Assembly (NCBI GenBank): GCA_964016885.1 | Contig: CAXHJY010001737.1 | Location: 112,046-176,045, forward strand | Length of the DNA stretch: 64,000 bases | Direction of reading: 5' to 3' | Source of the DNA: Eledone cirrhosa | Lineage: Eukaryota | Shown here: piece by piece, positions 1 through 58,167 of the stretch | How the letters are laid out: each line of letters starts with the position of its first letter | Position numbering within the stretch: the stretch's first letter is position 1 | Translations under genes and position numbers: made by a program | The notes under the pieces: model-generated | What the model was told of the DNA's origin: nothing | The model's database searches: none | What the model saw: only the letters and a program-made list of their open reading frames with translations

Positions 1-4
1 AACA

Positions 5-1396
5 ATGGGCTCTAACGATTCGGCGGAAATAACTGATATTGTGGGGTTATTTATCGCCTTTAGACTCCAGGAAAAATTCAGCAATCTCCACGGCGGAATA
101 TACCGCGACGATGTTCTCCTCCTAGCTAAAAACCTTAATAACCAAAAACTAGAAAAACTACGCAAAGATATAAGAAAACTACTACTCGAAATAGGACTAA
201 CTATAACATATGAATACAACCTTAAAGTAGTTAACTTCCTGGATGTCACACTCAATTTAAACTCTGGTTTGATTAAACCGCTTCATAAATTGAATGAAAA
301 TCTCAAATACGTAAATGTTGGGTCTAACCACCCCATCTCTATAATTAAATCTATCCCTAAAAATATTTCCCTTAGAATCTCGGGTCTATCTTCTAACATA
401 CAAGTATTTAAGGAACACGCCGAGTACTACGATAACGCCCTTAGTAAAGCAGGCTACCTCAACAAAATAGAGTACATAGATGGGAACAATCAAAACACCC
501 AAAATAAATCCCACATAGGTAGATATAATAACACAACACCAAACCACACTTACTACCATAGTATGCACACCAATAAACCAACAAACAAAACTAATAGAAA
601 GCGATGCAAAGAGTACTTATGGTATAACCCTGAATACAATAGCTCCATTAGTACAAATTTACCAGTACTCTTCTTTAAAATAATTAAAAGACATTTTCCC
701 ACATCACACAAATACCACAAAATCCTAAACCCTACCACTATAAGACTGTCATACTCTACAGCGTTAAACCTTGAACAACACATAAAAAAGATCAATACTA
801 GAAGGTTAAACGAAAACACTAAGAACTTAAGTACAAAGAACACAAAAAAAGCAGTAGACAATACACTACAGAACATAAATAAACCACACCTAAGTTCGTC
901 CGCAATACTACTCCAGAGAAAACCCAACGTACACAACTGTAACTGCACCTATCCTGACAACTGCCCCCTCGGCAATAACTGCCTGGAAAAAAATATTATT
1001 TATAAGTGTACCATTAAATCCGGAGGCAACGAGTGGTATTACGTGGGATCAACGGCAACATCGTTTAAATCTCGATTGTATAGGCATTCTTACTCAATAA
1101 AACACCAGAGCCAAAGAAATGTAACAACTTTAGCAGAAAAAGCTTGGACGCTCAGGGATAGCGATCAAAAGTTTACCCTAAAATGGGAAAAATTAGCTAA
1201 AACCCAAAGCTTTTCCAGGAGCCAAAATTTCTGCAAATTGTGTAATCTTGAGATTTATTACATAATCACGCACAAGAAGAAACTGCTGAATAACAGAATT
1301 GAACGAACATTATTCTGCCGTCACAGAACTAAAACCCTTTTTTTCCCACTACAAGCCGAATATTACATAAAAGAGGGACATCCCCCAACTATATAA
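5..1396 (+). CDS. Penelope-like element ORF, 5'-truncated by the window edge: RT C-terminal half, thumb, CxCx5C linker and C-terminal GIY-YIG endonuclease
   Basis: RT motifs MGSNDSAEITDIVGL, GIYRDD and VNFLDVTL. Linker CNCTYPDNCP. GIY-YIG-like IIYKC...YVGSTATSFKSRLYRH, then CKLCNLE. Confidence 0.93.
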   Translation: MGSNDSAEITDIVGLFIAFRLQEKFSNLHGGIYRDDVLLLAKNLNNQKLEKLRKDIRKLLLEIGLTITYEYNLKVVNFLDVTLNLNSGLIKPLHKLNENLKYVNVGSNHPISIIKSIPKNISLRISGLSSNIQVFKEHAEYYDNALSKAGYLNKIEYIDGNNQNTQNKSHIGRYNNTTPNHTYYHSMHTNKPTNKTNRKRCKEYLWYNPEYNSSISTNLPVLFFKIIKRHFPTSHKYHKILNPTTIRLSYSTALNLEQHIKKINTRRLNENTKNLSTKNTKKAVDNTLQNINKPHLSSSAILLQRKPNVHNCNCTYPDNCPLGNNCLEKNIIYKCTIKSGGNEWYYVGSTATSFKSRLYRHSYSIKHQSQRNVTTLAEKAWTLRDSDQKFTLKWEKLAKTQSFSRSQNFCKLCNLEIYYIITHKKKLLNNRIERTLFCRHRTKTLFFPLQAEYYIKEGHPPTI

Positions 1397-2227
1397 ACCT
1401 TAATCTAGTTAGAAAAATATAAAAACAATCTCTTCTCAACATATATTAATAACCTTAAATTACCATACTAATAATGGAAAGATATGCTGATGAGAATAGG
1501 TACAAATATGCGATAATGAATGTGTCTAAAAACGTCCATAAGTATGTATATATATGTGAAAATGTATATAAATAAGTAAATATATATATATGTTTGATGT
1601 GTATAGTTAGATGTAAGTGTATTCATGTATTAAAGTGCTTATATATATATATATATATATATATATATATATATATGTGTATGTATGTATGTGTATATGG
1701 ATGTGTATGTATGTGTATGTGTGTACACATGGACTAGAGTATGTATGTATATATGTGTGTGTCTATACGTGTGTATATAAAGATAAGTTGAGTATGAAAA
1801 TGTATACACATGAGCGCGTATGTATGTACATGAATACATGTGTGTATATATATGTGTATGCATGTGTATATATATGTAAGTATGAATATGTGAATTGTGA
1901 GTATATGTATTTGTGTGTGAATGCGTGGGTGAAAGGATACGTACACTTGAAAGAAAAATTTAAGTCTGAATGTTAATTAAGTGCAAACACAAAACCAACC
2001 ACGCATATCTTTACTATCTCTAATCCTTCTATAGATTTAGAAAAATAACCAATAATATATTCTATAAAAAATGTCAAAACAACAGATGGGAATCTAATTA
2101 CTCACTGCCACCAAGAATTCTCACTGCTATCGAAAAACCACTCCACCACTCCTTCAACTATTCCTCTAACAACTTCACCCCTCCCTCCTAATATTCTCTA
2201 TAAAAACTAAATAGGTCCTCAGTAATA

Positions 2228-2347
2228 TTATTCTGATGAAATGACAGTAAATAATAACATTGAAATATTGAATGTCTGCATAACTAAAAGTTTGTAGATA
2301 GCAGCTGTTTTAGGTTATGTAACTGTTATAGAAACACGTGTCAATAA
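2228..2347 (+). ncRNA. Type I hammerhead ribozyme with extended stem II
   Basis: Stem I TTATT/AATAA. CTGATGA at 2233-2239. Stem II base ATGACAGT/ACTGTTAT within a ~90-nt stem II domain. GAAAC-ACGT-GTC at 2331-2342 (palindromic ACACGTGT stem III). Confidence 0.8.
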
Positions 2348-2629
2348 ATTCCTTTCAACTAAACTGTATCCATTCAAATCTTTCTATTTTTCTCCGGATT
2401 ACTTTTGGAACTACAACTGGAACCGTCGAGCAAACTCTACGTGAGCTGATAATCTACTGTATGTAATATTTATATTACAACACAACGGAAAATACTGTAT
2501 ATATATACATATATATATATATATATATGAACTGCTTTGAGGGAGCTTTGATAGGCATCGGTGAGGATCGAACACGTTTATCTGCTTGTTTAATCCTGGA
2601 GATAAACATCTCGTGTAAATTGAATATAT

Positions 2630-56143: not shown

Positions 56144-56164
56144 GAATATATATATATATATATA

Positions 56165-57143
56165 GTTTTGCGAGGTTTTTTATATGAAATCGTGTGTCGA
56201 AACAAATATTGTTATACTTGGGGAGGGTCATATTTGTCATATTTGTGTAATATTGCCAGAATTAATAACAGAACACACTCACTGTTTGGTTGTAAAACTA
56301 GAAGCGTAGTCTATAGCATAAGATGTACAGAGGGTACTTGCAGAAACATGACAACAACATACATAGGGGAGACAGCTCGTAGTATAGGTGAAAGGATAGA
56401 CCAACACTGGGGGGAACTAAAAGGACGAAAAAACGGGTCAGTACTATACGAACATGCTAGACAACAACATGACGGTAACATAGACAACATAGAAATTAGA
56501 ATAATATCTAAACATAGAAATGACGCAGCAGATAGGCAAATCAGAGAGGCCAGTGAAATAGAAATTAGAAGACCACGACTAAACAGAAAGAATGAATGGA
56601 ATAACAACAACACCCAAACAAACAACACTGACCTAAGAGAAGTATAAATAAGTAAATAAAATAAAATAAATAAATAAATAAATACATACACAAGCACAAT
56701 AACAACAAGCACATAAACACACACTAGTCACCCATCGCACAGGAAACAAAACACTATACACACACGCAAACGCATGCGCAAAGAAGACAAAATAAAATAA
56801 ACAAAACAAGCAAATAAATAAATAAATATATAGACAGACTGAATAAAAATGGCGTAGACATACAATACAACAGGAGGAAAAGATAGCACCACTGACGATG
56901 TTGGATGTGCAACGAAAGATTTATGATAAACTATATATATGTGTTTGCGTCTATATTGTATCTGTATTATTTTTGACCGTCGGTCAGTCAATGGCAACAT
57001 TGAGGACCGAGTAAGTTAGATTACCGATATAAAAGACACAGAAGCGAGAAGCGAAAACCAACCAAACAGTGAGTGTGTTCTGTTATTAATTCTGGCAATA
57101 TTACACAAATATGACAAATATGACCCTCCCCAAGTATAACAAT
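56165..57143 (+). mobile_element. 5'-truncated Penelope-like element (different family) with inverted terminal segment
   Basis: About 56207-56291 is the reverse complement of ~57060-57143. It contains a GIY-YIG coding remnant and is flanked by (TA)n. Confidence 0.8.
56291..56647 (+). pseudogene. PLE GIY-YIG endonuclease remnant (CCHH type)
   Basis: CKTRSVVYSIRCTEGTC...YIGETARSIGERIDQH...LYEHARQQH...RQIREASEI...PRLN. Confidence 0.85.
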
Positions 57144-58030
57144 ATATATATATATATATATATATATATATATATATATATATATATATATATATATATA
57201 TATATGAGCAGGTGTGTTTTAGGAAATTAAATGCTACAAAAATATAAAAAAAGCAGAAGAAGGAAAGAAAAAGAAAAAGTAAAACGGAATTCAAGGAATT
57301 TCCAAAATAATAATAAAAAGTGAAAGTGTTTACTTTTGCAAATAAAGTGAAAGAATTTTTGCTGGGCAATAGAGTGTTGTAAAGCCTTCAAAATGAGGTA
57401 GTGGTGAGGTGGTGGGAGCTGTGACATTATTGAAGATTCAACTTGAAAATCATCGAATTCTTCTGTTCAATAATTTCTCTATTTGGGGTTCCCGGGAGAC
57501 GAAGGAGCTTTCCAAAAATATTTACTGAAAAAAATACAGAGAGAGCATACATGTACATATATATATATATATATATTTCATCTATATTTGTGTAATTCGC
57601 CTAAAAACATAACTTGTCTCTATGTGTTTTGTTATGTCCCAATGTACACTGGAATGAATAGTATCAGCCTTAAAAACTGAAATCGTAGTGATTTCCAAAG
57701 GTTCAATGAAGAGATAGGATTGTCAGTTTTTACGTTGTTTTTTCCCGTTGTCTTTCTGCTGTGCGCCCCTGTTTTAAATTCATATTCTAAAGATTTCCCC
57801 TTACAAATATAGCTTTTCGTTTTGTCTTATCCTCTCTGTTGCTTTTTCCTAAGTATATATACGCCGCTCCATATATATATATATATATATATATATATAA
57901 TTAAGTTAAGTATTTCCGAAGAAAAAGCAAAGGAAAAAAACAGTGCTCTATGAATAGAACAGAGCTATTTAATTAGAAAGTAAAACAACACAATATATAA
58001 CTACTCCATTACTAAAGATCGTTCATCAGC

Positions 58031-58096
58031 CTGTCTGATGAACGATCTAGACGTATGTTAATATCGTCTAGGGTCCTGAAACCTTTGGTAATGGAG
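58031..58096 (+). ncRNA. Type I hammerhead ribozyme (family E) inside a fold-back element ~57971-58128
   Basis: ctgt-CTGATGA-acgatc-TAGACG..CGTCTA-gggtcct-GAAAC-C-ttt-G-GTA-atgg. The left arm is an inverted, internally deleted copy. Confidence 0.72.
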
Positions 58097-58167
58097 TAGT
58101 TCTATATTGTGTTGTCCACTTTCTAATTATATATATATATATATATATATATATATATATATATATA

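Follow-up and report, generated by a model that had tools for sequence, protein, structure and literature searches.

Hammerhead ribozymes in a (TA)n-rich window of Eledone cirrhosa as probable ends of Penelope-like elements and of non-coding repeats with the same insertion pattern

We analysed a 64,000-nucleotide stretch of the Eledone cirrhosa genome (contig CAXHJY010001737.1, positions 112,046 to 176,045; hereafter the window). Its hammerhead ribozyme motifs very probably represent the ends of young Penelope-like elements (PLEs), together with repeats that lack an open reading frame (ORF) and share the same insertion pattern; judged from the sequences, both would have been written into (TA)n by PLE reverse transcriptase (RT)/GIY-YIG proteins. 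The window comprises the last 64 kb of a 176-kb contig in a genome of 3.0 Gb. No recognisable host gene was found in these 64 kb, the content being simple repeats and nested mobile elements, and (TA)4 or longer runs occupy 12% of the window.

The original prediction for this DNA had proposed three PLE loci, and all three were recovered. The PLEs and the two ORF-less tandem repeat families, A and B, are the following:

1-2497, forward strand: PLE1, a 5'-truncated Hydra-clade PLE, with the RT and GIY-YIG region at 2-1396 and a hammerhead at 2228-2347
17722-28736, both arms: PLE-C, a young Hydra-clade PLE, as an 11-kb head-to-head insertion
17722-23193: left arm of PLE-C, with an open frame at 21657-23249 and the long end
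23194-28736: right arm of PLE-C, with a frameshift near 23990 and the short end
17919-18073 (reverse strand) and 28519-28673 (forward strand): PLE-C hammerheads, with a 116-nt stem II region
56165-57141, forward strand: PLE3, a 5'-truncated Neptune/Nematis-type PLE, with GIY-YIG at 56294-56644
56165-56292: inverted long-end arm of PLE3, whose hammerhead core at 56892 has a weak stem I
6252-7301, forward strand: family A retrozyme, 2.5 units of 422 bp, with hammerheads at 6634-6676 and 7056-7098
10782-11369, forward strand: older family A copy with an inverted arm, hammerhead at 11049-11091
12413-13246, forward strand: older family A copy with an inverted arm, hammerhead at 12857-12901
44955-46365, reverse strand: family B retrozyme, 4.6 units of 310 bp, with five identical hammerheads, a single arm and TA on both sides

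In every family tested, the insertions lay in (TA)n as two arms placed head to head, which used two fixed 3' ends, one per arm. The distance between the two ends was 26 nt in family B, 56 nt in A, 137 nt in PLE-C, 44-59 nt in PLE3 and 80 nt in family D, a group of short palindromes described below. Family B ended at unit positions 4-17 and 37-50 in 19/19 head-to-head insertions, which occupy 17 of the 20 loci; single-armed or direct insertions were found at the remaining three and in the window. The ends of family A lay at unit positions 3 and 59 in 10 of the 11 insertions with both ends in view, and PLE-C ended at +73 and +210 from the cleavage site, with one of each in 9/9. One short and one long end were also found in PLE3 (8/9) and in D (39 of 42 by position, with two ambiguous, one long-long and none short-short). 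The D sample was positional, and the A, B, PLE-C and PLE3 loci were picked by similarity to young copies. A (TA)4 lay within 32 nt after 333 of the 346 terminating 3' ends, against a background of 7.5%. The inverted 5' segments reported in the original prediction are thus PLE-type head-to-head arms, present in every family tested, including the two ORF-less multimeric ones.

The centres of the insertions were variable. In family B, 14 of the 19 central junctions overlapped by 0-6 nt, one overlapped by 19 nt and four carried inserted letters, at scattered positions; none of 43 5' junctions fell at the cleavage site, which the arms crossed up to 13 times. In the window PLE-C, the right arm has 223 nt of ORF missing from the left, and the left has a 137-nt tail missing from the right. 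Because each arm holds sequence that the other lacks, both were copied from RNA and neither is a fold-back of the other. Five of the nine PLE-C arm pairs share a variant absent from the other sampled loci and none mixes subfamily haplotypes, pointing, as far as the sequences tell, to one source locus though not necessarily to one molecule. These arms bear on the idea that PLE machinery made the insertions by snap-back, the first cDNA priming itself to form the inverted arm with no second priming at the target. The centre of D does match an imperfect hairpin in the parent loop II, and self-priming has been proposed for rotifer PLEs (PMC3846280). The short-end arms of the window PLE-C and PLE3, however, extend further 5' than the long-end arms and yet lack their tail, and in family B the longer arm can be either one, so we consider snap-back hardly credible.

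We propose instead that PLE proteins use the two DNA ends of a single break as primers, copying their own RNA (in cis) and likely also non-coding RNAs (in trans). The PLE endonuclease would cut both strands within (TA)n. One source locus would supply the RNA, on which each DNA end would prime cDNA at one of the two internal sites, and the two cDNAs would join centrally by microhomology. Since both start sites are located downstream of the cleavage site, a cleaved linear monomer would give only 17-275 nt; the template would thus be a religated circle or a multimer that had not been cleaved. In the short D and E palindromes, both cDNAs would have reached the 5' end of an RNA that begins close by, probably at a transcription start within the ribozyme. 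Self-cleavage is a prediction (in dimeric form for A, B, PLE-C and PLE1) and would not be needed for insertion.

The case for trans mobilisation comes from families A and B, which have no ORF and nevertheless follow the same end rule as the PLEs; on this ground we infer that PLE enzymes mobilised them. Both fit the sequence definition of non-LTR (long terminal repeat) retrozymes, with tandem units of 150-450 bp, a type I hammerhead in each unit and no ORF or LTR features, and they share no BLAST similarity with each other. Family A is represented in the window by four ribozymes at three loci, with full-unit matches 93-98% alike. The 43-mer ribozyme of the window family B, which belongs to one B subfamily, has 2,528 exact copies in the genome. 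In the first 5.75 Mb of contig C1, all 100 listed matches to the genome-wide hammerhead pattern given below belonged to family A, B or H, apart from one that was another variant. Family H, whose retrozyme units of 466 bp are 66-72% similar to family A, is absent from the window; one two-armed array of it has 31 units in one arm and one in the other (C1:5738326-5752500). The family B unit (46061-46357) was also found as one 340-nt contig with 2-3 differences in runs of unspecified kind labelled as three other organisms, where a relative, diet, contamination or a shared element are all possible.

The opposite reading is that everything moved in cis, each motif being what 5' truncation left of an autonomous PLE, and the arrays of 310- and 422-bp units having grown later by local tandem duplication, a satellite-birth route favoured in bioRxiv 10.64898/2026.07.22.740005. 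The D, F, PLE1, PLE-C and PLE3 motifs are indeed PLE ends or resemble them, and the shuffled unit variants of long arrays (the C6 PLE-C array and the 31-unit 466-bp array) are typical of later unequal exchange. We nevertheless regard this reading as very unlikely. At dispersed loci, the arrays of family B are close to 100% identical; both of their arms are multimeric, their outer ends lie at fixed sites and their central junctions are scattered. One B subfamily has the 2,528 exact ribozyme copies given above. The A, B and H arms were never joined to an ORF: among the fetched loci, arms continuing from a PLE ORF without a TA break numbered 0/74 in A, 0/44 in B and 0/11 in H, and the single flagged arm next to a PLE frame is separated from it by a TA run. 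The claim that PLEs move many non-coding ribozyme RNAs in trans therefore stands in part: the PLE signature in ORF-less A and B upholds it, but many of the motifs are PLE ends moved in cis (PLE1, PLE-C, PLE3, and D as a Hydra-PLE 3' end).

Several points weigh against our proposal. No PLE sharing sequence with A or B was found among the fetched PLE ends, in a search that covered flanks of mostly 1.5-3 kb; no homologue of the PLE pseudo-LTR (pLTR) was seen for A or B among those ends. Most loci were retrieved via likeness to young copies. The "private" arm variants are private only among about 40 loci, and the one family B variant tested genome-wide defines a 1,396-copy subfamily. The D palindromes may have a cis origin, in the 5' ends of mRNAs of autonomous PLEs. 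For rotifers, PMC3846280 argued for self-priming on an antisense template and observed no cross-mobilisation between PLE families. Regarding the target, 38 of 41 ends in the window adjoin TA, a count that is partly circular because we set the ends by eye where TA begins. Among non-PLE repeats, which include two RTE fragments, a duplicated short interspersed element (SINE) and a short repeat, 12 of 24 ends likewise lie within 5 nt of (TA)n. (TA)n is here a general sink, not specific to hammerhead elements. The earlier statement that nearly all motifs are embedded in (TA)n thus holds as to their ends, and loses specificity with TA at 12% of the window and half of the control ends also next to it.

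Whether the multimeric templates were circles is a separate matter. An RT dimer of a PLE may have worked on a small circular ribozyme RNA, priming at two fixed sites on it from both ends of a (TA)n break and rolling round the circle in both arms; we put this forward tentatively, as somewhat less likely than not. The homogeneous family B arrays fit a circular template, and a homogeneous master array fits them equally. The six-unit PLE-C array and the 31-unit H array hold mixed unit variants, so that one circle would need later shuffling. An array-private variant does not prove a single circle, the family B variant tested being the one with 1,396 copies; a mirrored unit variant in two arms was seen at one site of the C6 array and was not borne out across the whole unit. 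If the circle reading is true, viroid-like RNAs would have left rolling-circle products as fossils in the genome by the tens of thousands, and a 6.65-kb autonomous element would move likewise.

PLE-C and PLE1 are placed in the Hydra clade by comparing their motifs with the clade definition. This clade of PLEs with a C-terminal endonuclease (EN+) was defined by Craig et al. 2021 (PMC8557442), who list Hydra-1_Obim, a 2,507-bp element of Octopus bimaculoides in (TA)n, and describe inverted 5' copies with a one-sided tail of 30-40 bp. As in the clade so described, the PLE-C and PLE1 frames have RWK-like and DKT motifs, a CxCX5C linker, and CxxC and CxH around the endonuclease end, and the elements combine a hammerhead, a (TA)n target, tandem and inverted insertions and a one-sided tail. 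The PLE-C frame is a single ORF in which the RT precedes a C-terminal GIY-YIG region, has no CCHH and agrees by eye with the published alignment; in PLE1 the N-terminus is absent. PLE1 is a second Hydra-type family, 40% identical to PLE-C, with a 91-nt stem II region in its hammerhead and a short inverted arm some 0.6-0.8 kb left of the window. The PLE-C hammerhead lies in the terminal repeat, and 32/32 terminating PLE-C ends were at TA. Pfam failed to recognise the PLE frames and gave no RT or GIY-YIG match for that of PLE-C, whose best homologue showed a weak GIY-YIG match; a homologue search with the PLE frame returned 118 relatives, the best 39% identical across the full length. Genome copies of PLE-C are many, 99-100% identical and with intact frames reaching 830 codons, as judged from 85 copies scored among 114,422 first-look candidates.

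The full PLE-C unit, defined from the tandem array on contig C6, measures 6,652 bp with a 3.8-kb simple-repeat 3' untranslated region (UTR), unlike the Hydra clade, whose elements are described as generally below 3 kb, a descriptive and not a diagnostic feature. The tails are also longer than the 30-40 bp given for the clade (137 nt in PLE-C, about 110 in PLE1 and 80 in the D parent), and the stem II region spans 91-116 nt. The 3' UTR of the window copy (24935-28520) is mostly mixed (TA)/(TG) repeats with decayed core-like motifs near 25009 and 25675, and CTGATGA occurs twice in the UTR of a relative at locus L022. The C6 array itself (C6:49524960-49566400) is one insertion of about 41 kb with mixed unit variants, one arm holding 5.4 units and the other 5.3 kb. 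PLE3 belongs to a young family with frames of up to 1,119 codons (locus L213), a CX4CxxC linker and an asparagine-rich stretch. Having a CX2-5CxxC linker and a CCHH-type GIY-YIG, it is of Neptune/Nematis type; its hammerhead core is conserved across copies with a weak stem I. The long N-rich insert near the N-terminus of its frame (L213:4598-7954) recalls the N-rich inserts of rotifer Penelope (PMC3846280).

Families A and B resemble the metazoan non-LTR retrozymes of Cervera and de la Pena 2020 (PMC7229834) and of Li, Clavereau and Pollet 2026 (bioRxiv 10.64898/2026.07.22.740005) in their ORF-less tandem units of 422 and 310 bp with one type I hammerhead each, a weak palindromic helix III, low GC and coexistence with PLEs. 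Their predicted folds are stable (z of -4.4, circular, for family B and -6.2 for family A). They differ from the retrozymes as described in these two sources in their head-to-head arrays, fixed double ends and (TA)n targeting, and the word "inverted" occurs 0 times in PMC7229834. The large target duplications of the published retrozymes were not seen here. Such retrozymes are further defined by transcription, self-cleavage and circularisation in vivo, and A and B correspond to them at the sequence level. Mobilisation of retrozymes by PLEs was proposed in the Discussion of PMC7229834 and in the bioRxiv article, and a circular template in PMC4209133. Our literature search, which left subscription papers and bioRxiv supplements outside, found nothing on two-armed retrozyme arrays or on cephalopod retrozymes.

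The closest biochemical counterpart is PAc, a purified lizard PLE of the Poseidon type (Frangieh et al. 2024, PMC11167929), which cuts and extends both strands of AT-rich DNA in vitro and starts reverse transcription at two internal RNA sites that bound the tail, uncleaved RNA being sufficient. By analogy, the insertion anatomy seen here would be the PAc reaction recorded in DNA. PAc is of another clade, and the work as published concerns its RNA in cis, with no non-autonomous template, multimers or test of two-arm joining. (TA)n targeting and hammerheads in Hydra PLEs are thus already known, and PLE mobilisation of retrozymes is published or proposed; what is new, as far as our literature search reaches, is that retrozymes whose two arms are both multimeric bear the two-site signature of PLEs, together with tails of up to 137 nt and a 6.65-kb Hydra element. 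In twin priming of L1 elements, two primings at the target ends give a 5' inversion joined by microhomology. Unlike in L1, both primings are here at fixed internal sites, the arms overlap in sequence and there is no poly(A).

The hammerhead load of the window was counted with a type I descriptor (CTGANGA, stem II, GAAA, helix III or a palindromic loop, UH, stem I). The strict form detected 13 perfect-core hammerheads, against means of 0.06 and 0.05 (maximum 1) in 100 global and 100 local dinucleotide shuffles, and none in the reversed and complemented window. A relaxed form detected 15 intact hammerheads (60 local shuffles: mean 0.22, maximum 1), at 2233+, 6640+, 7062+, 11055+, 12208-, 12864+, 18063-, 28529+, 46869+ and 58035+ and in five copies at 45107-46347-. 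Two further intact cores were read by eye outside the descriptor set, at 13687+ (G at the cleavage base) and 56892+ (stem I fails). The 15 relaxed-set motifs correspond to about 9 insertions, five lying in one array and two being arms of one element; 9 of the 15 sit within ORF-less tandem retrozymes of 422- and 310-bp units, and 3 are Hydra-clade PLE ends. Relic or half motifs, scored by eye and self-BLAST, occur at about 12-13 loci: four of family D, four or five of family E and four others (2810-2981, 8619-8769, 14290-14602 and 57900-58030). The half motifs cannot be ribozymes, and most of them are PLE tail-end hairpins. The earlier counts of about 16 intact cores and about 12 relics are therefore close to ours, and the density lies far from shuffle level (13-15 against 0.05-0.2). 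The claim of at least eight unrelated sequence contexts needs to be reduced to fewer independent origins, as the 13687 motif and the D parent, D and E, and F and a Hydra PLE are similar, while A and B do show no similarity.

Genome-wide, the pattern CTGANGA-N10-20-GAAAC-NN-GTH, which is narrow since it skips long-stem-II and helix-III-rich families, matched 61,856 times in 3.0 Gb (about 21 per Mb), and its reverse 407 times. The window, with 9 such matches against 1.3 expected from the genome mean, is a hammerhead hot spot. Published hammerhead counts are >6,000 in a coral, about 5,000 in a mussel and 126,247 in the axolotl (PMC7229834). The very large genomic load that had been suggested is thus borne out, and "unannotated" is a fair description as regards the Rfam library: at gathering score, Rfam gave no hammerhead in the window and likewise no match in 11 chimera loci. 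Its E-value mode returned microRNA models on TA runs among the matches listed for the window (150 of 541), and nothing useful on one family D parent locus.

The half motifs, relics and related repeats of the window are the following:

13271-13476: family D palindrome, each of its two arms consisting of a tail and the 3' half of a hammerhead from a Hydra PLE
46392-46575: family D palindrome
46994-47188: family D palindrome
55445-55644: family D palindrome of an older subfamily
5724-5920: family E fold-back, with a canonical type I hammerhead relic in both arms
29495-29714: family E fold-back relic
55059-55431: family E relics, a fold-back and a further arm
46591-46967: composite of a family E fragment, a PLE3-like end fragment and family F, with an F hammerhead at 46855-46940 (forward strand)
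57900-58127: family F fold-back, with an intact hammerhead at 58031-58094 (forward strand) and a deleted copy in the inverted long arm
13675-13775, forward strand: hammerhead relic related to the D parent, core intact, G at the cleavage position
2810-2981, reverse strand: repeat whose end, at a (TA)n junction, is the 5' half of a hammerhead core, with matches in 10 fetched loci
8384-8881, reverse strand: repeat between TA runs with a one-mismatch hammerhead core (8619-8769), with matches in 12 fetched loci
12054-12321, reverse strand: repeat with an intact-core hammerhead at 12208, a 51-nt stem II region and a palindromic loop III
14290-14602: old relative of family B (71%)
29756-29839: 84-bp fold-back of a B-like 3' end, no hammerhead
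47708-47880: fold-back of a PLE3-type tail end, no hammerhead

Family D corresponds to the last 110-190 nt of a Hydra-PLE 3' UTR. In 29 of 30 parent loci the D anchor is preceded by a canonical type I hammerhead's 5' half, the 30th having a deletion in the anchor, and several parent loci have a GIY-YIG end 1.0-1.4 kb upstream. The parent core is mostly CTGAGAA and predicted inactive. One exact pattern retrieved 12,869 D palindromes from the genome; their arms extend at most 14 nt upstream of the anchor. In long parent templates the partner arm stops at the D boundary in only 2 of about 15 pairs, too rarely for so many double stops, so D likely derives from RNA that begins at this boundary. That RNA may be short and non-coding, in which case D would have moved in trans, or it may be the beginning of a PLE mRNA, in which case D would have moved in cis. 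The D boundary resembles an initiator consensus. Penelope transcripts are described as beginning inside the pLTR (PMC2377424). By eye, there was no support for D as the cleavage product of a second ribozyme or as a tRNA-type SINE, and a cap-derived extra G at its 5' end was unsupported (free letters T 8, G 2, C 2). At six loci (L096, L193, L198, L200, L205 and L274) D 5' ends are joined directly to poly(A), another PLE's hammerhead, family A or other repeats, which suggests template jumps. Family E contains the whole canonical hammerhead, many copies starting at its stem I, and has an 18-nt tail motif in common with D. Neither D nor E forms tandem units with whole hammerheads: D is monomeric with the 3' half only, and the E copies seen are monomeric. 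Over 29 nt, family F is 86% similar to the end of a Hydra PLE, and over 50 nt the 13687 motif is 72% similar to the D parent. No hairpin is common to all start sites by eye, PLE-C having a 4-bp hairpin after both ends, D and E another, and A and B neither. A fold-back repeat at 48220-48548, with a long and a short arm, has no hammerhead core and matches 7 fetched loci.

The short palindromes could also be taken for miniature inverted-repeat transposable elements (MITEs) of a TA-inserting DNA transposon, and the arrays for satellites or SINEs mobilised by a long interspersed element (LINE) of the RTE type. D and E do look like terminal-inverted-repeat elements flanked by TA, and young RTE fragments, 98% alike, lie in TA within the window. 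The D ends, however, are asymmetric by 80 nt in 39 of 42 and the centres differ between copies, in place of the symmetric terminal inverted repeats and constant interior of a MITE; D makes up the final 190 nt of the 3' UTR of a Hydra PLE, and in some copies the 5' end is fused to poly(A) or to other repeats. The arrays show two fixed ends per family with no poly(A) or repeat tail at the 3' ends, where a LINE-mobilised SINE has a single 3' end with such a tail (homology to the 3' ends of local LINEs was not searched genome-wide), and the RTE copies of the window are single-armed. We therefore consider such an origin extremely improbable. The insertion signatures that would point to LINE or DNA-transposon mobilisation are replaced by two fixed asymmetric ends.

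The remainder of the window includes a partial tandem of an L1/Tx1-type LINE in (TATC)n at 30299-40614, with a zinc-knuckle ORF1 and endonuclease, RT and zf-RVT by Pfam; its second copy lacks about 1.9 kb, and another fragment lies left of the window (L121:147-1769). Two LINE 3' fragments at 48585-48906 and 55658-56145, which are presumably RTE-like, are 98% identical, have no Pfam match and lie each between TA runs. We also found an exact 342-bp local duplication of a SINE-like repeat with a TA flank (41956-42519), a satellite of about 105 bp (42580-43530) and a minisatellite of about 40 bp (49797-50370), with units about 80% alike.

For E. cirrhosa, the findings show at least 20 hammerheads per Mb that escape Rfam, and more than 12,000 short palindromes that a repeat pipeline could class as MITEs. 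What has so far been learned of how retrozymes move and how inverted PLE ends form comes from co-occurrence and from a single in vitro study. In this genome, retrozymes without an ORF show the same two-site ends as young intact PLEs, with both start sites mapped to the base in six families. The components are known, and the finding sharpens a standing model and opens no new class. The mapped sites define substrates for reconstitution, in which one could ask which enzyme acts on which RNA, and whether as circle or multimer.

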